Origin: SAR86 cluster bacterium SAR86B
Lineage (GTDB): Bacteria > Pseudomonadota > Gammaproteobacteria > Magnimaribacterales > D2472
Length of the DNA stretch: 64,000 bases
Reading direction: 5' to 3'
Assembly (NCBI GenBank): GCA_905181955.1
Contig: CAJJAC010000010.1
Location: 1,620 to 65,619 of the forward strand
Of the stretch, positions 4,929 to 33,079 are shown one piece after another (position 1 is the stretch's first letter; every line of letters starts with the position of its first letter). Both the position numbers and the translations under genes were made by a program. The notes beneath the pieces were generated by a model. The model had not been told where the DNA came from and did no database searches. It saw only the letters and a list, made by a program, of their open reading frames with translations.

Positions 4929-6905
4929 ATGAATATTTTTTATTACGACATTGCTATACCTATTCCTATTAGAGAAACATTTACATATCAATCAAAAGAT
5001 ATTATCCAAACTGGTACCAGAGTTGCTATTAAATTTAGGAATAAAGAGGTAGTTGGCTACGTTATTAAAAACCTTAAAAATAAACCTAGTTTTCCAACTA
5101 CTGAAATATTTGAAATATTAGATAGTGAACCAATTTTTAAATCTTCAGATTTGCAAATTATTTCTTGGCTTGCAGACTACTATCATCATCCTATAGGAGA
5201 AGTATTTGATACTTTTTGCCCTCCATCATTAAGAAAGAGAATTAAGACAGATCCTCTTATAACCTCATTTGATACAACTTATGAAGTTATAAAAGAAGAT
5301 AAAATATTTGAGTTAAATGCAGAACAAGAGAATTGCGTAAAAGAACTTAAAGCCTTAAAGGGATTTGACCCATGTCTTCTTTATGGAGTTACAGGATCAG
5401 GTAAAACGGAGATATATCTAAGAATCTCAGATATATACTTATCTAAAGGTAAGTCAATATTAATTCTCGTACCAGAAATCTCCTTAACCCCTCAGCTTCA
5501 AGAAAGATTTATTAATAGATTTGGAGATAACATTGGCATCTATCATTCGCGACAAACACCCAAACAAAGATACGATGTGTGGAATAAAGCCAGGTCAGGC
5601 GAAATAAAAATAGTAATTGGAACTAGATCAGCAGTTTTATGCCCATTACATAATTTGGGCCTAATGATAATAGATGAAGAGCATGACCAATCTTATAAAC
5701 AACATGAAGGTTTTAGATTTTCTGCAAGAGACTTAAGTATAAAAAGAGCTCAGGTAGAAGATATCCCAATCATTTTAGGAACAGCTACACCCTCATTACA
5801 AACATTAAAATTAGTTCAAGACAAAAAGTATAAACAAATAAATATCTTAAAAAGAGCAAATGGCTCTGAACCACCTGGATTTATAGTATTAGATATCAAT
5901 GATTCAAAGTTAGAATCTGGTATTGCCAAAGAATCATTAGATGCAATAGAAATGACCCTAAGTCAAAATAAGCAAGTACTTATTTTTATTAATAGAAGAG
6001 GATTTTCTCCTCTGTATGAATGCAATGATTGTAGATGGGTGGCAGAGTGTAAATCCTGTGATGCCCGTTTAGTCTTTCATCATGGTTTAGATAGATTGAT
6101 GTGTCATAGGTGTGAGTCTGCTTATGGTGTTCCTAAAAAGTGCCCAGAGTGTGCTCATTCAAATCTGAGTCTTCAGGGTTCAGGTACAGAAAGAATAGAA
6201 TTGTTTTTAGAAAACTACTTTAAAAATACAACTATTATTCGTTTAGATCATGACACCACTAAAAAGAAAGGCGCACTAAATGAAATTATTAAAAAAGTGC
6301 ATGAATCAGATTCAGCAATTCTAATCGGAACGCAGATGCTTGCTAAAGGACATGATTTTCCTAAAGTAGAATTAGGTGTAATTCTAAATTGCGATGCTGG
6401 CATTACAAGCCCAGATATTAATAGCCTTGAAAAAATATCACAGCTATTAATTCAAGTTTCAGGTCGTGTTGGCAGAAAGGAGGGTAATGGTAAGGTCTTG
6501 ATCCAAACAAGATATCCAGAAGATGAAAATCTAAGAGAATTAAAATCTGGAGATTATCTTAATTTTGCATTAAAAAATTTAAAACAAAAAAAAGAACTAC
6601 ATCATCCACCATATACTGCAGTATCTTTATTGAGAACAAGTTCACCACTGGCCGAGCATAATATTAAATTTTTAGAAAAGGTAGCTAGCATACTAAGCAT
6701 AGAATCTGATATATCAGCAATAGGACCAATACCTTCGATAATAACTAAGAGTAGAGGTAATTTTAGACATCATTTAATTATTCAAACAACGTCTAAGACG
6801 TTATTAAATAAATTTGCACAGGACATCATTTCTTCAGTTTCATCGTGGAAGGAGACTAAAAAAGTTAAATGGTATTTTGATATAGACCCAATCGATTATA
6901 GCTAA
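4929..6905 (+). CDS. priA: Primosomal replication-restart helicase PriA
   Basis: Walker A GVTGSGKTE, DEEHD box, and a Cys-rich zinc-binding insertion (CNDC...CKSC...CHRC...CPEC). Confidence 0.95.
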   Translation: MNIFYYDIAIPIPIRETFTYQSKDIIQTGTRVAIKFRNKEVVGYVIKNLKNKPSFPTTEIFEILDSEPIFKSSDLQIISWLADYYHHPIGEVFDTFCPPSLRKRIKTDPLITSFDTTYEVIKEDKIFELNAEQENCVKELKALKGFDPCLLYGVTGSGKTEIYLRISDIYLSKGKSILILVPEISLTPQLQERFINRFGDNIGIYHSRQTPKQRYDVWNKARSGEIKIVIGTRSAVLCPLHNLGLMIIDEEHDQSYKQHEGFRFSARDLSIKRAQVEDIPIILGTATPSLQTLKLVQDKKYKQINILKRANGSEPPGFIVLDINDSKLESGIAKESLDAIEMTLSQNKQVLIFINRRGFSPLYECNDCRWVAECKSCDARLVFHHGLDRLMCHRCESAYGVPKKCPECAHSNLSLQGSGTERIELFLENYFKNTTIIRLDHDTTKKKGALNEIIKKVHESDSAILIGTQMLAKGHDFPKVELGVILNCDAGITSPDINSLEKISQLLIQVSGRVGRKEGNGKVLIQTRYPEDENLRELKSGDYLNFALKNLKQKKELHHPPYTAVSLLRTSSPLAEHNIKFLEKVASILSIESDISAIGPIPSIITKSRGNFRHHLIIQTTSKTLLNKFAQDIISSVSSWKETKKVKWYFDIDPIDYS

Positions 6906-8173
6906 ATTGCTATTTTAATATTTTGTCCAGGGTAGATGGCTTTTCCGCGAAGGTTATTGAGGTCTATTATTTCATCAACCGTAACGCCAAATCTTATTGC
7001 GATTTCAGATATAACATCACCTTTTTGAATGGTGTATTCAATATTTGACTGGACTGGATCCATAAAAGTATTAGGTTTAGGCTTTTCTTTAAAATAATCA
7101 TGGATTCCAAGAAAGATAGATCTAGCTATCATCCTTCTTCCCGGTTTGCCTTTTAGCCTAGCAGCATCTTCAGCATTTGAAATAAAACCAGATTCAACTA
7201 AAACAGAAGGTATGTCGATAGATTTGAGTACTCTAAAGTCTGCAAATTCAACATTTTTTTTATGAAGCCTGGTGTAAGGATCTAACCTCAACTTATCTAA
7301 AATCTTGTTGCCAAGAATAATACTATTTTCTATTTTTGCCTCATAAACTAATTGATATAAAGTTCTGGCAGCATCTTCATCAAAATCATTCACATCCAGT
7401 TTGCCTATTTTTGCTTTCACCTCTGGGTTATTAGCAAGCTCCTTTTTAGAAAGGTTTGCTGCTGTAATGCTTGATGCTTCTTCTGACCAAACAAATACAG
7501 AAACTCCTTTAACAGAAGACAATCTAAATGCATCAGCATGAATAGATACAAAGATATCAGCACCAACTTTTCTTGCATTTTGGTACCTATCATTAAGGTC
7601 TACAAAAGAATCATCTTCCCTTATCATTACAGGCTTATAGCCCTTAGTATCCCTTAGAGTTCTCTCAAGCTCTCTTGCAATAAGTAAAGTAATATCTTTT
7701 TCTAAAATATTTAATTTCCCAACTGCGCCAGGATCTCTTCCTCCATGACCTGCATCGATAGCTACGATAATATCTCTTATATTTTTACTTAGTTTTTTAT
7801 CCTTCTTAATTTCAAAAATTAATAAAACATGGTCTTTTTTTTCTATTTGCCAAGGCTTTTTCCAATAAACTGATTCATATAAATCAAGTACTATCCTCGA
7901 CGTGGAACCATCTTTTGAAGCTCGTATTTTTTTAATTGGGTGGTTTTGACGATTTTCTAATTCACCCTTAAGTTCAGAATCTTTTATATCAATGACAATT
8001 CGAGAAGGCTCGTCTAAAGCATAAGATTTAACAAGGGCAATCTTGCTAAGTTTGAAAGTAATTCTAACTTCACCAGACGGCAGTTCTTTAATAGATGAGA
8101 ACTCTACTAAATTTGAACTGAAGGTCTCTAAACTAATAAAAAATAAGCAGCTTAGAATAATTAATTGTTTCAT
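6902..8173 (-). CDS. amiB: N-acetylmuramoyl-L-alanine amidase with N-terminal AMIN-like domain and C-terminal LysM
   Basis: Amidase_3 motifs IDAGHGG and SIHADA. C-terminal LysM (YTIQKGDVISEIAIRFGV...). nnr-tsaE-amiB gene order. Confidence 0.85.
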   Translation of the reverse strand: MKQLIILSCLFFISLETFSSNLVEFSSIKELPSGEVRITFKLSKIALVKSYALDEPSRIVIDIKDSELKGELENRQNHPIKKIRASKDGSTSRIVLDLYESVYWKKPWQIEKKDHVLLIFEIKKDKKLSKNIRDIIVAIDAGHGGRDPGAVGKLNILEKDITLLIARELERTLRDTKGYKPVMIREDDSFVDLNDRYQNARKVGADIFVSIHADAFRLSSVKGVSVFVWSEEASSITAANLSKKELANNPEVKAKIGKLDVNDFDEDAARTLYQLVYEAKIENSIILGNKILDKLRLDPYTRLHKKNVEFADFRVLKSIDIPSVLVESGFISNAEDAARLKGKPGRRMIARSIFLGIHDYFKEKPKPNTFMDPVQSNIEYTIQKGDVISEIAIRFGVTVDEIIDLNNLRGKAIYPGQNIKIAI

Positions 8174-29973: not shown

Positions 29974-30051
<78 letters not shown>

Positions 30052-30131: not shown

Positions 30132-30869
30132 TTATGACAATCCAAGTTTCTTTGATTTACGAAAACTGTTTATTGAAAATGGAATGCTCAATAAATAAGC
30201 AATAGCTAATATAGAAATAAATACCCATAAAAAATTTATTAACAGCAACACTATAGTAAAAAATATAATAAGAGTCGGAAGAGAATGCGCTCTCCTTAAT
30301 TGAAATGAAGAATTTTTAAGAGAATATGTTGGTATGTTACTTATTAATAGGAAAGCAATTACAAGAGTATAAAAAGCTAATAAGTTTGGGTAGTTAGTCC
30401 ACCAATTAAAGCTAATAAAGGAATGTGCAACCGGTAACAAAATTAATATCGCTCCTGCTGGAGTCGGAACTCCTTTAAAAAAACTTTTCGGGTTAGGTTC
30501 TAAATTTGAATTATTATCAATATTAAAAAGCGCCAATCTCAGACAGGAAAAGATAATAAAAAGCAGAAGAGATAACCAGCTTACTAGACCCATATCACTC
30601 ATTAAACTCATATATAACAATAAACTCGGTGCTATACCAAAATTTACAAAATCTGCTAAAGAGTCAAGCTGTGCTCCTAATTCAGAATGTGCTTGTAATA
30701 AAGATGCCATCAATCCATCGAGCAGATCACATACTGCAGCAATAAGGATACATATTAAGCTAGCTTGATATTGTCCTTCAAGAGCAAATCGCATAGAAGT
30801 AATTCCAAAACAAAGCCCTGAAAGAGTTATTAAATTTGGAATCAAAGCGCGGATGGCTGGTTTTTGCAT
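30132..30869 (-). CDS. pssA: CDP-alcohol phosphatidyltransferase, phosphatidylserine synthase type
   Basis: DLLDGLMA...GAQLDSLADFV (DG..AR...G...D...D-type motif), multi-pass membrane protein, 7 nt downstream of psd. Confidence 0.8.
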   Translation of the reverse strand: MQKPAIRALIPNLITLSGLCFGITSMRFALEGQYQASLICILIAAVCDLLDGLMASLLQAHSELGAQLDSLADFVNFGIAPSLLLYMSLMSDMGLVSWLSLLLFIIFSCLRLALFNIDNNSNLEPNPKSFFKGVPTPAGAILILLPVAHSFISFNWWTNYPNLLAFYTLVIAFLLISNIPTYSLKNSSFQLRRAHSLPTLIIFFTIVLLLINFLWVFISILAIAYLLSIPFSINSFRKSKKLGLS

Positions 30870-30876
30870 AACCTAA

Positions 30877-31536
30877 TTATAAAGATGCAAGCACTGACTC
30901 TCCAGCCACAACTTTTTGATTTAAACTACAATCAATCTGAGTATTAATAGGAAAATAAATATCAACCCTTGATCCAAATCTAATTAAACCAAATCTCTCA
31001 CCTGCACTAAGGGTATGCCCATCTTTAATAAAGCTCAAAATCCTTCTAGCAATTAAACCTGCAATTTGAACAACGACTATCTCAACATTATCTTTGGTTT
31101 GAATAACTAAAGCATTTCTTTCATTTTTTTCACTAGCTTTATCTAAACTTGCATTCAAAAAACTTCCTTTCGTATAAGCAATTTTTTTTACTTTGCCTGC
31201 GATTGGGCTTCTGTTTACATGGACATTAAAGACATTCATGAAAACACAAACTCTTTTCATAATTACAGGCTCTAATTCAGATTCTAATGGCGGTAAAGAT
31301 TCATCAATTAAACAAATAACTCCATCTGCAGGACTATATATAGTTCCTGGGATAGAGGGCGTAACCCTTTCAGGGTCTCTAAAGAACCATATTATGAATA
31401 AAGTAATTAGGCACCCAAGAGCTGCAAGAGGAAGCCAGATAAAAAAGAATAAAACTGATATACATAAAGCAATTAAAGCGAACTTCCATCCCTCAGGATG
31501 AATAAATGATAGAAATTTATTTTTTGATAAAGACAT
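30877..31536 (-). CDS. psd: Phosphatidylserine decarboxylase proenzyme (short form)
   Basis: 219 aa with N-terminal TM helices and an FGSR self-cleavage motif near the C-terminus (LIRFGSRVDIY). Confidence 0.85.
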   Translation of the reverse strand: MSLSKNKFLSFIHPEGWKFALIALCISVLFFFIWLPLAALGCLITLFIIWFFRDPERVTPSIPGTIYSPADGVICLIDESLPPLESELEPVIMKRVCVFMNVFNVHVNRSPIAGKVKKIAYTKGSFLNASLDKASEKNERNALVIQTKDNVEIVVVQIAGLIARRILSFIKDGHTLSAGERFGLIRFGSRVDIYFPINTQIDCSLNQKVVAGESVLASL

Positions 31537-31545
31537 AGTTCTTCC

Positions 31546-31935
31546 CTAGAGCTCGCCCTTATTTCTCATATCTTTTCTAATCTTTGTAGCGCTAATATCA
31601 GTAATAGACTCATCAAAAGTTTCTTCTTCAAAAACATAACCAACGCCGCGACCATAAGTAATATTTACAATATTAGGTACAAGCATGATCTCGTATTCCC
31701 TGCCTCTTTCAAAACCATCTACCTTGAGACCGTCTTCTATATTTTTACAAACAGTATCCCAATCAAAAGGATTATCAGCTTGACCATCTCCGCCCGAAGC
31801 CCCTTGAACGTCTCTAACTTGAATAGCGACTTGCCCAGTTTTAGCAACACATCTTTTAAATAATGCTTGATGGCCGTCATGCCATGGCTGCCATCTTCCG
31901 AGCATTTGTACAGTTGGTTTTTTCCAATCAAACAT
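31546..31935 (-). CDS. Small HxGH nucleotidyltransferase (cytidylyltransferase-like fold; NadM/NMNAT- or TagD-like)
   Basis: 129 aa. GRWQPWHDGH matches the GRxQPxHxGH signature of archaeal/NadM-type NMN adenylyltransferases. C-terminal ISATKIR matches the ISxTxxR motif. Confidence 0.65.
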   Translation of the reverse strand: MFDWKKPTVQMLGRWQPWHDGHQALFKRCVAKTGQVAIQVRDVQGASGGDGQADNPFDWDTVCKNIEDGLKVDGFERGREYEIMLVPNIVNITYGRGVGYVFEEETFDESITDISATKIRKDMRNKGEL

Positions 31936-32344
31936 TTTTTAATATCTCCTTGGCAATATCTTCATGATTATGATCATTCCATTCAGTAATATGAAAACTT
32001 ACATTTTCAGGATTTTGAAATAATTTATTAGTATCTTCGTATCTACCTTCTTTAATAGTATCCATCCACACAACGATATCTGCATCAAAGTTTTCCCTTG
32101 TTTCTTGAGTTGGGCAAACAAAATCACATACAACACATCTACCATGTAATTTTTCAAAATCAGCAAAGCTTCGCATTCTAAGAGACTGTCTTCTTCTGCC
32201 TTCGTCTGAAAAGTCCCAATCATTTGCCATTTCTCTTACTTTATCTGCGTTATACCAAGCAGCACTTAAAAGAGGCACCAATCGTTCAGTAAGATATGTT
32301 TTACCACTTCCAGGAAGGCCCATAACTAACACTTTCATCATCAA
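31928..32344 (-). CDS. Minimal P-loop kinase-like protein (APS-kinase/AAA_33-like)
   Basis: 138 aa with GLPGSGKTY Walker A at residues 9-17. It overlaps the downstream nucleotidyltransferase gene by 8 nt. Confidence 0.6.
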   Translation of the reverse strand: MMMKVLVMGLPGSGKTYLTERLVPLLSAAWYNADKVREMANDWDFSDEGRRRQSLRMRSFADFEKLHGRCVVCDFVCPTQETRENFDADIVVWMDTIKEGRYEDTNKLFQNPENVSFHITEWNDHNHEDIAKEILKNV

Positions 32345-32359
32345 GTCCTTGAATTTAAT

Positions 32360-33079
32360 TTATTTAACGGCATTTGAAGCAGAACTCTTTAAAGATGTAT
32401 ATAAGCTGAAGTATATATAAGCCCATGGAAATACAAATGTATATTCAATAATACCTGCAAGAATAAGTTGAAGTATCGAACTCCCTCCACCTGCCGCCAT
32501 TGGTAAGACAGAAATAACAATCATCGCCAGAGCCGAGCTTAATGCAAAAAATGTAAAAGTTAGAAAAAATAAAATAGTCCCATGCTCATCTGTTACTTCC
32601 CAAGATTTGGCAATAGAACCCCTAACACCTGTTCCTTCAAACATAACGTAAGCTGGAGTTAATCCAAGTCTTCCAGCTAAATAAAATCCAGGAAGGATTA
32701 ACATAAGAAATCCTAATGAAAAGATAAGATAACAAAGCATTAAAGCTCCAAGTAATGGAAAAAACTTTTTAAAGCCAATAAATAGAGCATCAAATGGTTT
32801 TATATCCTTACCTTCTGTTAAAGCATCAAATGCTACAAAGACTCCACCTGTAAAAGATATGCTCAGAACAATCGAAATAAAGGATAGGAGGGTAATAGGC
32901 ATGGAGTTAGTTTCAAAATATAGCCCAATATCATCCATATTTCCTGCTTCCAATAACAAGGTTGCATCGGTTAAGTAATATGCAGTTATGATCTCAACCA
33001 AAAAGACAGGAAAGGCCAAGACTGCAAGAAATTGCCAGTGAGTAAATGCAAATTGCCAAGCTGATTTAAATTGGTTCAT
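32360..33079 (-). CDS. Multi-pass integral membrane protein of unknown function (YciC/UPF0259-like architecture)
   Basis: 239 aa with 5-6 hydrophobic segments. The assignment is by architecture only. Confidence 0.4.
   Translation of the reverse strand: MNQFKSAWQFAFTHWQFLAVLAFPVFLVEIITAYYLTDATLLLEAGNMDDIGLYFETNSMPITLLSFISIVLSISFTGGVFVAFDALTEGKDIKPFDALFIGFKKFFPLLGALMLCYLIFSLGFLMLILPGFYLAGRLGLTPAYVMFEGTGVRGSIAKSWEVTDEHGTILFFLTFTFFALSSALAMIVISVLPMAAGGGSSILQLILAGIIEYTFVFPWAYIYFSLYTSLKSSASNAVK

Follow-up and report, generated by a model that had tools for sequence, protein, structure and literature searches.

The window, by which we mean the whole 64-kb stretch of DNA that was analysed, carries on its minus strand two very small overlapping genes, one for a P-loop kinase and one for a nucleotidyltransferase (NT), that are packed tightly between a membrane protein gene and two lipid genes. 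The features of this locus, in order of position, are:

30132..30869, minus strand: pssA, CDP-diacylglycerol-serine O-phosphatidyltransferase (PF01066, E 1.3e-17; TIGR00473, E 2.3e-28)
30877..31536, minus strand: psd, phosphatidylserine decarboxylase (PF02666, E 2.5e-42)
31546..31935, minus strand: NT gene, 129 aa, minimal HIGH-superfamily nucleotidyltransferase with GRWQPWHDGH and ISATKIR
31928..31935, minus strand: start/stop overlap of the kinase and NT genes, 8 nt, ATGTTTGA, read directly
31951-31946, minus strand: Shine-Dalgarno-like site AAGGAG within the 3' end of the kinase gene
31928..32341, minus strand: kinase gene, miniature APS-kinase-family protein of 136-137 aa, with the stop codon TGA at 31930-31928
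32360..33079, minus strand: YciC/UPF0259-like membrane protein gene upstream of the kinase gene (weak PF06790 and NF002774 matches)

An earlier note on this DNA had described two small ORFs with these NT motifs and a GLPGSGKT motif, an 8-nt overlap between them, and distances of 9 and 7 nt to psd and pssA. All of this was confirmed, with 9 nt between the NT stop codon and the psd start (31536) and 7 nt between the psd stop codon and the pssA start (30869), and the identities of psd and pssA were borne out by the profile matches listed above. The mechanically called ORF of 138 aa that contains GLPGSGKT extends over 31928-32344 (minus strand) and begins with a TTG at 32344. However, the ATG at 32338 or 32341 is the most likely start of the kinase, because the public protein collection contains forms of 136 and 137 aa but none of 138 aa. 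The N-terminus of the kinase homologs reads MK(I/V)L(I/V)xGLPG. Judged from the sequence, the start/stop overlap has a geometry that would suit translational coupling.

Metatranscriptome contigs were found to span the junctions between the yciC-like gene, the kinase gene and the NT gene, as well as the kinase/NT/psd junction, and one RNA contig (31704-33070) covers the yciC-like gene, the kinase and the NT. These junction-crossing contigs are compatible with a single transcription unit. The yciC-like gene is probably co-transcribed with the pair and is regarded here as context only. The psd gene appears to share the transcription unit with the pair at this locus, yet it lies outside the conserved module, and pssA is likewise only context for the pair.

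The kinase is a divergent member of the APS-kinase family. It scores 24.7 bits against the Pfam model APS_kinase (PF01583), which is above the gathering score of 21.1, and its alignment to the PDB APS kinase 2yvu (E 9e-5) extends across two motifs of the acceptor site, DxxR and FSxxxR. By the criteria of NCBI it is not a CysC equivalog, since it reaches only 15-24 bits against the NCBIfam CysC equivalog and subfamily models, the cutoffs of which are 127-715. The AF2 model of the kinase has a pLDDT of 95, and its best Foldseek matches are all APS kinases (2pey, 3cr7, 1m7g, 2ofx and 6c6b at the top, with TMq values of 0.74-0.82 and E-values of about 1e-6 to 1e-5), the next ranks being taken by gluconate and shikimate kinases. 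The P-loop is accompanied by the acceptor-site motifs of APS kinases ((L)DGDxxR, GFSxxDRxEN and FTGIDxxYExP). N32-A-D34-x-x-R37 replaces DGDxxR, the canonical form of which occurs in some family members, and F45-S46-x-x-x-R50-x-x-Q53 matches GFSxxDRxEN. A remnant of the LID, (F/Y)xDTNxxFxxP, is conserved and reads Y101-x-D-T-N-x-x-F109-x-x-P112 here, while the remainder of the LID is shortened. Throughout the family D34, R37, F45, R50, T105 and P112 are invariant, and Q53, D104 and F109 nearly so. Members of the cluster have already been named adenylyl-sulfate kinase by NCBI and JGI, and phosphorylation of the 3'-OH of APS is the activity predicted from motifs and model. The earlier note had rightly recognised a P-loop kinase, but it had overlooked the relation to APS kinases as well as the setting among genes of sulfur-nucleotide metabolism.

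The NT is a protein of archaeal NMNAT/NadM ancestry in which the NMN-binding segment has been replaced. The NMNAT/NadM likeness that had been suggested for it was therefore correct as a statement of ancestry, and rests on the match of the family profile to the NMNAT 1f9a (E 3.7e-10), which is confined to positions 8-80. The nearest folds to the AF2 model (pLDDT 88.6) are archaeal NMNAT/NadM, PPAT and PanC, all of them weak matches (E>=8e-3). Searches of Pfam and NCBIfam gave no above-cutoff match for the NT, the NadM-type models NF002243 and TIGR01527 scoring 23.6 bits against a cutoff of 127 and 21.1 against 181, respectively. In databases it appears as 'cytidyltransferase', 'phosphopantetheine adenylyltransferase' (JGI) or 'hypothetical'. 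The invariant residues are G13, R14, Q16, P17, H19, H22, R41, N55, P56, P87, Y94, G95, R96, V98, G99, A116 and R120. The ATP-binding motifs are retained, including GRFQPxHxGH, NPF and SxTxxR as in archaeal NMNAT/NadM, whereas the E-R element of NMNATs is gone, as is D-I-x-x-N-x-x-W, the residues of which we take to be the NMN contacts on the basis of the M. thermoautotrophicum structure. The place of the NMN-binding segment is occupied by PNIxNIxYGRxVGY with its invariant YGR(D/G)VGY loop. R41 and R96 are NT-specific invariants that are new relative to NMNAT.

As for ATP sulfurylases, the Pfam profile search gave no match of the NT to PF01747 at E<=1, and no ATP sulfurylase was among the top 50 Foldseek matches or the PDB profile matches. 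The NT has G-R-W-Q-P and not the Sat-type Q-x-R-N-P, and a length of 129 aa leaves no space for a PUA-like N-terminal domain. The NT is therefore not a member of the Sat/MET3-type ATP sulfurylases, and what is proposed below is limited to a function that may be similar. In the NT, the invariant HxGH (H19, H22) is followed about 75 residues downstream by the invariant Y-G-R-(D/G)-V-G-Y loop, which may resemble the anion/phosphate loop of Sat, GRDHAG.

That a P-loop kinase and an HxGH nucleotidyltransferase form a unit, as the earlier note had supposed, is supported by their distribution. The pair is carried by SAR86, SAR11, other marine Alphaproteobacteria and at least 557 viral contigs, in agreement with the suggestion that relatives might be present in marine phages. 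We analysed 160 loci, 80 of them species-representative genome loci with 10-kb flanks and 80 viral loci, and in about 90% of these the kinase and the NT are adjacent, overlapping or fused. In 71 of the 80 genome loci and 49 of the 80 viral loci the kinase gene either immediately precedes the NT gene or is fused to it; a gap of about 120-450 nt separates the two in another 21 viral loci and in 1 genome locus, the spacer in these viral loci being an ORF of 71 aa that encodes a DUF2061 protein. Literature searches on DUF2061, on a small ATP sulfurylase and on aprA of SAR86 returned nothing specific. Other loci of SAR86 share the identical 8-nt overlap, as does MarineAlpha5 (L028: 5514-6008 / 6001-6396), and in the SAR11 locus L074 the overlap is 1 nt. 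Casjensviridae phages and some other loci have a one-ORF fusion in the order kinase to NT, and the single phage family phrog_10255 spans both halves. The contigs of the divergent fused homologs P0134, P0265, P0242 and P0262 are short or phage-like, with DNA polymerase A, UDG and ParB-methyltransferase as neighbours; they contain no annotated sulfur genes and are uninformative on the substrate.

Because a fused form exists in phages and an A-run lies at the junction, a programmed frameshift or a broken fusion gene was considered for the present locus. This was rejected, because the split overlap, the separate ATG and the Shine-Dalgarno-like site are kept across SAR86, MarineAlpha5 and SAR11, and because thousands of contigs have separate calls for the two proteins.

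Sulfur-gene contexts of the pair recur in independent lineages. A Sulfotransfer_3 gene (E 3.5e-38) is located immediately upstream of it in the SAR86 loci L007, L009, L010 and L014, and a cysQ gene (TIGR01331, 285.9 bits against a cutoff of 228.8) occupies this position in L022, L023, L025, L027 and L029, with xsc close to the pair in L022, L023 and L029. In L020, L028, L030-L033 and L035 the flanking genes are those for AprA (992.7 against 641.75), AprB (190 against 135.65) and a membrane protein, and a gene for a PF03601/YeiH-family protein, a putative sulfate exporter, is found immediately upstream in L008 and L017. The cassette of Casjensviridae phages has the order sulfotransferase-like gene, NADAR gene, kinase::NT, the sulfotransferase-like protein having PAPS-loop motifs and scoring 26.2 bits against Sulfotransfer_4 (threshold 22.8). 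Most SAR11 loci, the marine viral loci and this window have no adjacent sulfur-nucleotide gene, and no homolog of aprA/B, cysQ, xsc or a sulfotransferase gene is present anywhere in the 64 kb. Besides this window, only 1 of the 80 genome loci (L004) has psd-pssA after the pair, and none of the SAR11 or viral loci has it next to the pair. The adjacency of the pair to psd-pssA is a local accident.

What the analysis shows directly are the families and folds of the two proteins, their conserved residues, and the linkage and contexts of the genes; building on these, we propose, at a probability of about 45%, that the pair is a minimal PAPS-synthase-like module with the NT as a non-canonical ATP sulfurylase. 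The NT would bind ATP through its HxGH and ISATxIR motifs and run the reversible reaction of ATP sulfurylases (ATP + sulfate <-> APS + PPi), with R41 and the Y94-G-R96-x-V-G-Y loop, with their invariant arginines and glycines, forming the pocket in place of the NMN-binding elements of NMNATs. The 136-aa kinase would then turn APS into PAPS, for use by sulfotransferases, through phosphorylation at the 3'-OH, and CysQ would clear the resulting PAP. In lineages with AprMBA, sulfite and AMP would provide a second source of APS, and the NT might operate in reverse (APS + PPi -> ATP + sulfate), which would amount to the 'sat' step that SAR11 genomes are without. The overlapping start and stop codons, or the fusion in phages, could serve to hold the two proteins stoichiometric. 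Sulfate or APS as the NT substrate is suggested by gene context together with one missing pathway step, and the order of action and the physiological direction are to be read in the same conditional manner.

The missing step is apparent from the literature on Pelagibacter, in which aprBA and 'cysC' are present and sat and cysDNHIJ absent, with cysC and aprA showing the same distribution across strains (PMC5069961). For these aerobic heterotrophic hosts, the suggested role of AprBA is the detoxification of sulfite that arises in organosulfur catabolism (PMC5069961), and sat has been predicted in HTCC9565 only (PMC3448164). To judge from the NCBI and JGI names, the 'cysC' of the SAR11 papers would be the present kinase. 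No expression data for the SAR11 orthologs were found in the supplements of PMC5069961. Several observations speak against the sulfurylase reading. The NT is closest to NMNATs and has no sequence or fold match to canonical ATP sulfurylases. In sulfur oxidisers, sat operates without an APS kinase, so that the strict pairing of NT and kinase would be unexplained if the main flux were from APS to ATP. Furthermore, an NT with sulfurylase activity would be redundant in HTCC9565, for which sat, cysC and aprA are all reported. The lack of a neighbouring sulfur-nucleotide gene at most SAR11 loci, at the marine viral loci and in this window also counts against it.

Slightly more tentative is the wider proposal that the 129-aa NT founds a third class of ATP sulfurylases, a minimal one that arose from an NMNAT-like ancestor, and that in SAR11, SAR86 and their streamlined marine relatives it supplies the missing 'sat' of the AprBA sulfite-oxidation/APS pathway. 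The NT and the mini APS kinase would then make up the smallest known PAPS synthase, which would serve marine T4-like phages and Casjensviridae as an auxiliary module for sulfation.

The proposed logic of sulfate to APS to PAPS is that of the metazoan PAPS synthases PAPSS1/2, with an N-terminal APS kinase and a C-terminal ATP sulfurylase, and of the split bacterial Sat and CysC. The kinase belongs to the same family as that of PAPS synthases, the fused pair has the same order (kinase N-terminal, nucleotidyltransferase C-terminal), and the second enzyme of PAPS synthases is, like the NT, of the HIGH/HxxH type of nucleotidyl transfer. In contrast, Sat has about 390 aa, whereas the 129-aa NT comes from the NMNAT/NadM branch and lacks the PUA-like domain, the QxRN motif and any match to the Sat profile or fold. 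The kinase is about 60 aa shorter than CysC, with the LID shortened, and the activity of the pair is only predicted. Archaeal NMNAT/NadM proteins (1f9a, 1m8g, 2qjt) have the Rossmann-like core in common with the NT, with profile E-values of 4e-10 to 2e-9 over the N-terminal two-thirds and TMq values of up to 0.71; however, the NT is about 40 aa shorter, has R41 and Y-G-R-(D/G)-V-G-Y in place of the E-R after NPF and the NMN segment, and is always paired with an APS-kinase-like gene, in sulfur contexts. The sat-aprMBA sulfite-oxidation clusters of sulfur oxidisers such as Allochromatium vinosum (PMC3779200) likewise have genes for APS handling adjoining aprMBA, and in L020 and L028 the pair is divergent from the aprM-like gene, at the position where sulfur oxidisers have sat. 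The pair loci differ from those clusters in that they have no canonical sat and have an extra APS kinase, and in that their hosts are aerobic heterotrophs.

A reading that we consider unlikely, though not negligible, is that the kinase is a true APS kinase while the NT has another task in APS, PAPS or PAP metabolism. It might transfer the adenylyl group to another anion or phospho-compound, the product of which would also be 3'-phosphorylated by the kinase, or it might carry out a turnover of the APS:phosphate adenylyltransferase kind or be a non-catalytic nucleotide-binding regulatory subunit of the kinase. The evidence from kinase identity and sulfur context is common to this reading and the sulfurylase reading, the lack of specific similarity between NT and Sat favours the former, and the strict pairing would suit a subunit or regulator as well. 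However, the catalytic residues of the HIGH family are all invariant in the NT (H19, H22, R14, S/A/T-x-x-R120), which argues for an active enzyme. Moreover, APS is the sole metabolite common to AprBA and APS kinase, and ATP sulfurylase is the one activity that is absent from the gene blocks and that the literature reports as lacking in SAR11. A synthesis of the CoA type, in which a PPAT-like NT adenylylates 4'-phosphopantetheine or another phospho-compound and a DPCK-like kinase adds the 3'-phosphate to give CoA or another 3'-phospho-ADP-X cofactor, appears very improbable. PPAT is among the fold and profile matches of the NT and is the source of its JGI name, the adenosine 3'-OH is the target of both APS kinase and DPCK, and enoyl-CoA hydratase and CoA-binding protein genes are found downstream in many SAR11 loci; CysQ, too, would fit, as it also removes the 3',5'-ADP that phosphopantetheinyl transfer sets free from CoA. 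Yet the similarity to PPAT is weaker than that to NMNAT, the contexts with sulfotransferase, AprBA, Xsc and the sulfate-exporter family would be left unexplained, CoA is essential whereas the pair is not universal in SAR11, and CoA synthesis is not expected of T4-like marine phages.

Both functions that the earlier note had weighed fare poorly. NAD salvage after the manner of NadR, with the kinase converting NR to NMN and the NT adenylylating NMN to NAD, we consider improbable, even though the NT is nearest in sequence and fold to archaeal NMNAT/NadM, a NADAR gene immediately precedes the fused gene in Casjensviridae phages, and phages are known to carry NAD-salvage genes (PMC9503650). NadR resembles the pair in combining a HIGH nucleotidyltransferase (NMNAT) with a P-loop kinase (ribosylnicotinamide kinase), but its domain order is the reverse and its gene context is different. 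The present kinase matches APS kinases and not RNK, with an E-value of 0.073 for AAA_28 and of 0.055 for the NadR model, the latter on the P-loop only, and its two invariant arginines at the acceptor positions of APS kinases suit an anionic adenine nucleotide rather than the cationic NR. The loss of the NMN-binding segment and the E-R motif from the NT likewise counts against NMN as a substrate, and the recurrent neighbours are sulfur genes, with no pnuC or nad genes seen among them. The 'cysC' pattern, with the pair absent in some SAR11 strains, also implies that it is not the only NMNAT of those strains. Activation of lipid head groups of the Kennedy type, in which a kinase and a cytidylyltransferase would provide a CDP-alcohol for the adjoining CDP-alcohol phosphatidyltransferase, is extremely improbable. 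It was suggested by the packing of the pair, apparently co-transcribed, before psd-pssA in this window and in L004, and a different, pgsA-like CDP-OH_P_transf gene is located upstream of the pair in 2 of the 80 genome loci, both of SAR86 (directly in L003, one ORF away in L021). However, only 3 of 17 SAR86 species loci have lipid genes beside the pair, and none of the SAR11, other alphaproteobacterial or viral loci does. A lack of linkage to psd-pssA in other genomes was among the grounds that the earlier note had itself named for abandoning the idea. In addition, PssA and PgsA of bacteria use CDP-diacylglycerol and not a CDP-alcohol, Kennedy kinases have a protein-kinase-like fold and not a P-loop, and the NT scores only 12.2 bits against CTP_transf_like (PF01467), the threshold of which is 21.

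Few bacteria of the surface ocean are as abundant as SAR11 and SAR86, and a large share of their metabolism consists in the turnover of organosulfur compounds (DMSP, taurine, sulfonates). In published reconstructions, the APS made by AprBA has no annotated route to sulfate, because sat is absent; these reconstructions also carry an orphan 'cysC'. If the NT is an ATP sulfurylase, the AprBA/APS pathway would be closed, sulfite oxidation could yield ATP in energy-limited cells, and both the cells and their phages could produce PAPS for use in sulfation. It would also be a very small enzyme for the biotechnology of ATP, APS and PAPS, and the viral 'cysC' auxiliary genes would have to be re-read as parts of a two-gene unit. 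If the NT acts otherwise, it still represents a very widespread and highly conserved enzyme family without an assigned function.

Lastly, the composition of the locus was examined per gene (61 genes; G+C and GC1-3) and per 60-nt line across the window, since the pair had been suspected to be a compositionally distinct and possibly acquired cassette. This view did not hold. The kinase gene is ordinary (G+C 0.343, rank 25 of 61, GC3 z=-0.28). The NT gene has the highest G+C of the window (0.395, z=2.3), but the excess sits at the first codon positions (GC1 0.543, with a GC3 of only 0.271, z=1.66), as it does in the FDH gene, which indicates an effect of amino-acid composition and gives no sign of foreign DNA. 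Lines with 40-48% G+C are not distinctive either, as a G+C of at least 40% is seen in 20% of all such 60-nt lines across the window, and same-strand alternative-frame ORFs of at least 60 aa, which had been thought to appear only here, are present in 5 of the 61 genes.

The kinase and nucleotidyltransferase (NT) genes that make up the pair are part of a tight gene unit, in which the ORFs, the overlap and the spacings described in the earlier note are real (the tRNA gene next to the unit is listed last):

32360-33079, gene for a YciC-like membrane protein, upstream of the kinase
31928-32344, minus strand, kinase ORF of 138 aa (ORF listing)
31546-31935, minus strand, NT ORF of 129 aa (ORF listing)
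30877-31536, minus strand, psd, confirmed by Pfam and NCBIfam
30132-30869, minus strand, pssA, confirmed by Pfam and NCBIfam
29974-30051, minus strand, tRNA-Ile(GAT), just 3' of pssA

Sequence inspection showed that kinase and NT overlap by 8 nt, ATGTTTGA, and the other spacings are 15 nt (yciC-like gene to kinase), 9 nt (NT to psd) and 7 nt (psd to pssA). Translation of the kinase probably starts at the ATG at 32338 or 32341, ahead of which AAGGA is found at 32350-32346; the public protein collection holds forms of 136 and 137 aa and lacks the 138-aa form. Metatranscriptome contigs, with low depth over the pair, run from the yciC-like gene through the kinase into NT, and from the kinase through NT into psd. 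The unit is therefore probably transcribed as one mRNA, the evidence being assembled contigs in which DNA carry-over is possible. In one contig of the metatranscriptome run X4 (depth 3.9), 31731 is followed directly by 32188, so that 456 nt over the kinase/NT junction are missing; with a short side of 33 nt, this single contig may stem from misassembly or from a variant carrying a deletion. Coverage of tRNA-Ile(GAT) was very high in all four metatranscriptomes.

The view that the pair is compositionally an acquired cassette did not hold up. The kinase, 25th of 61 genes by G+C (34.3%) and with a GC3 z of -0.28, is ordinary for the window, which has a mean of 33.2%. NT has the highest G+C content of all genes in the window (39.5%, z=2.3). 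This excess comes from the first position of its codons (GC1 0.543), exactly the pattern of the conserved FDH gene, while GC3 of NT is 0.271 (z=1.66). Of all 60-nt lines, a fifth have at least 40% G+C, and alternative-frame ORFs on the same strand occur in 5 of the 61 genes. Judged by these per-gene values, line counts and ORF counts, nothing in the composition points to recent acquisition. The PsiE-family gene (PF06146; 29473-29889, minus strand) shows an unusually high GC3 of 0.319 (z=3.4) at an average total G+C.

The pair itself is a conserved module, and psd-pssA lies outside it. An exhaustive search of representatives yielded 397 clusters at E≤1e-10, including stand-alone forms of about 125 aa and kinase-NT fusions of about 260 aa, and a single PHROG family, phrog_10255, spans both proteins. 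Among 80 genome loci from species representatives of SAR86, SAR11/Pelagibacteraceae and other marine Alphaproteobacteria, the kinase was directly 5' of NT or fused to it in 71. Other SAR86 loci and MarineAlpha5 likewise show an overlap of 8 nt; in SAR11 it is 1 nt. At least 557 relatives are present in IMG/VR; kinase and NT were adjacent or fused in 49 of 80 viral loci, where the neighbours are T4-like replication genes in marine viruses. In a further 21 viral loci, on marine T4-like contigs, a 71-aa DUF2061 membrane ORF (PF09834, E 3e-13) separates the two (L096, L103, L108, L119, L120, L122, L144, L147, L149, L154, L157, L159, L161, L163, L165 and others); a literature search on DUF2061 gave nothing useful. 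One homolog of 395 aa (P0261) begins with about 130 aa of membrane segment, by eye resembling the DUF4118 region of KdpD-type sensors, ahead of the fused kinase-NT.

This distribution bears on the suggestion of a Kennedy-type role in lipid headgroup activation, which had been drawn from the position of the pair ahead of psd-pssA. Among the compared loci, psd-pssA followed the pair only in L004, a locus syntenic with the whole window, and we therefore abandon this reading. A gene for a pgsA-like CDP-alcohol phosphatidyltransferase (PF01066, E 2e-29) is located 5' of the pair in two SAR86 loci, directly in L003 (4860-5396) and one ORF off in L021. Lipid-synthesis genes are thus neighbours of the pair in two distinct SAR86 gene orders, which may reflect coincidence or a real lipid link; we record it as an unexplained coincidence.

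At the domain level, the call of a P-loop kinase followed by an HxGH nucleotidyltransferase was correct, the two being an APS-kinase fold and an NMNAT-like NT. The kinase is an APS-kinase-family protein. Its top Pfam match is APS_kinase (24.7 bits, passing the gathering score of 21.1), and its sole significant PDB sequence match is the Aeropyrum APS kinase 2yvu, in an alignment that covers the acceptor-site motifs (D34-x-x-R37 versus (D)GDxxR; F45-S-x-x-x-R50-x-x-Q53 versus GF(S/T)xxxRxxN). The best fold matches of its AlphaFold model (pLDDT 95) are all APS kinases (TMq 0.74-0.82), followed by gluconate and shikimate kinases. Fused and split homologs alike show no variation at D34, R37, F45, R50, T105 and P112, and an (F/Y)xDTNxxFxxP segment is present, which we take to be the counterpart of the textbook APS-kinase motif FTGIDxxYExP. 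The protein is small, its LID is cut back, and it falls far short of the NCBIfam CysC equivalog cutoffs; NCBI and JGI use the name adenylyl-sulfate kinase for proteins in its 90% cluster and for the SAR11 and MarineAlpha5 orthologs.

NT is a minimal HIGH-family enzyme derived from NMNAT. None of the Pfam and NCBIfam models searched matched it at threshold, and its labels in the sources are 'cytidyltransferase', 'phosphopantetheine adenylyltransferase' or 'hypothetical'. Its model (pLDDT 88.6) is a nucleotidyltransferase Rossmann core whose nearest solved structures, all with weak E-values, are archaeal NMNAT/NadM, followed by PPAT and PanC. The NT family profile (A4) matched NMNAT 1f9a with an E-value of 3.7e-10 and NadM with 2e-9, the match being restricted to positions 8-80, from GRFQPxHxGH via NPF to 'VPNI'. 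The ATP-binding elements R14, H19, H22 and S/A/T-x-x-R120 are invariant. R41 stands in place of a glycine, the E-R following NPF is gone, and past position 80 the NMN-contacting segment of NMNAT is exchanged for an invariant Y94-G-R96-(D/G)-V-G-Y. With this replacement, and with a kinase of the APS-kinase family, the NadR-type reading is not supported. NT showed no specific likeness to known ATP sulfurylases, and our literature search found no paper that treats it.

Grouping of neighbour genes into clusters revealed sulfur genes beside the pair at several loci, while none is near it in the window. A Sulfotransfer_3 protein (E 3.5e-38) is encoded directly 5' and in the same orientation in 4 SAR86 loci, CysQ (above the equivalog cutoff) directly 5' in 5 alphaproteobacterial loci and a few genes off in 2 more, and a PF03601/YeiH protein, which we take to belong to the putative sulfate exporter family of TCDB, directly 5' in 2 SAR86 loci, of which one is from a complete genome. 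Xsc, a sulfite-releasing enzyme, is encoded 2-3 genes 5' in 3 loci. In 7 loci (L020, L028, L030-L033, L035), genes for AprA, AprB and a membrane protein of 264 aa border the pair. In four MarineAlpha5 assemblies the order is CysQ, a 116-aa protein, AprA, AprB, the membrane protein, then kinase, NT and an ArsC-family protein, with the kinase divergent from the aprM-like gene. Two conserved proteins without a family match accompany aprBA in these seven loci:

L028:1852-2202, 116-aa protein, 3' of aprA
L028:4595-5389, 264-aa multi-pass membrane protein, 5' of aprB, presumably an AprM-like anchor

The ArsC-family gene (PF03960) directly 3' of NT is found in MarineAlpha5 (L028:6413-6766) and in one SAR86 arrangement (L005, L013). 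Neighbours in main-clade SAR11 are less specific, being organosulfur and C1 genes (DddP-like, MtoX-like, Rieske/GbcA-like, DMGDH-like, enoyl-CoA hydratase, CoA-binding protein). In the Casjensviridae phages Sano, Salvo, Bacata and Bhz60, a 192-aa 'hypothetical' protein and NADAR precede the fused kinase-NT; the 192-aa protein passes Sulfotransfer_4 (26.2 versus 22.8 bits), and its PRSxSxW-type loop and RxxxExxxS motif are spaced as in the SAR86 sulfotransferase. In Bhz60 (Stenotrophomonas phage) and Bacata (Xylella phage) these genes form a compact early-region cassette (5978-7741 in both L002 and L001), the final two junctions of which overlap by 8 nt. By rough estimate, among some 16 distinct synteny contexts about 6 contain a gene specific to APS, PAPS, PAP or sulfate no more than two genes away from the pair. 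With at most 10 such genes placed randomly among about 1,400 in the genome, about 0.5 would be expected (Poisson P about 1e-5).

The best reading of the pair is a minimal sulfate-activation/APS-turnover module, with NT as a new candidate ATP sulfurylase. The data establish the families of the two proteins, their conservation and their gene contexts, from which we infer the substrate of NT and the direction of its reaction. NT would bind ATP via HxGH and ISATxIR and catalyse ATP + sulfate <-> APS + PPi in a former NMN site that R41 and YGRxVGY would have adapted to a small anion. The kinase would convert APS to PAPS, which sulfotransferases would consume, with CysQ removing PAP. Where AprMBA is present, sulfite could be an extra APS source, and the reverse reaction of NT would release sulfate and produce ATP. 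The two enzymes would be kept side by side through gene fusion or translational coupling, a sensible arrangement given that the formation of APS is thermodynamically uphill and depends on the kinase to draw it forward. Three points count against the proposal: organisms with sat-aprMBA show no strict kinase pairing, unlike NT here; NT lacks a specific likeness to known ATP sulfurylases; and the window has no sulfur gene near the pair.

Viral cysC is given in reviews as an unvalidated aquatic auxiliary gene. In Pelagibacter, AprBA is present and sat and cysDNHIJ are absent (Smith et al. 2016, PMC5069961), with one 'cysC' in exactly the aprA-bearing strains and cysQ in all strains (Table 3, PMC5069961). 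Grote et al. (2012, PMC3448164) reported sat in HTCC9565 only, and mentioned 'aprBA and/or APS kinase'. Since the SAR11 orthologs are named adenylyl-sulfate kinase in public sources, we infer that the 'cysC' of the SAR11 papers is the kinase of the pair.
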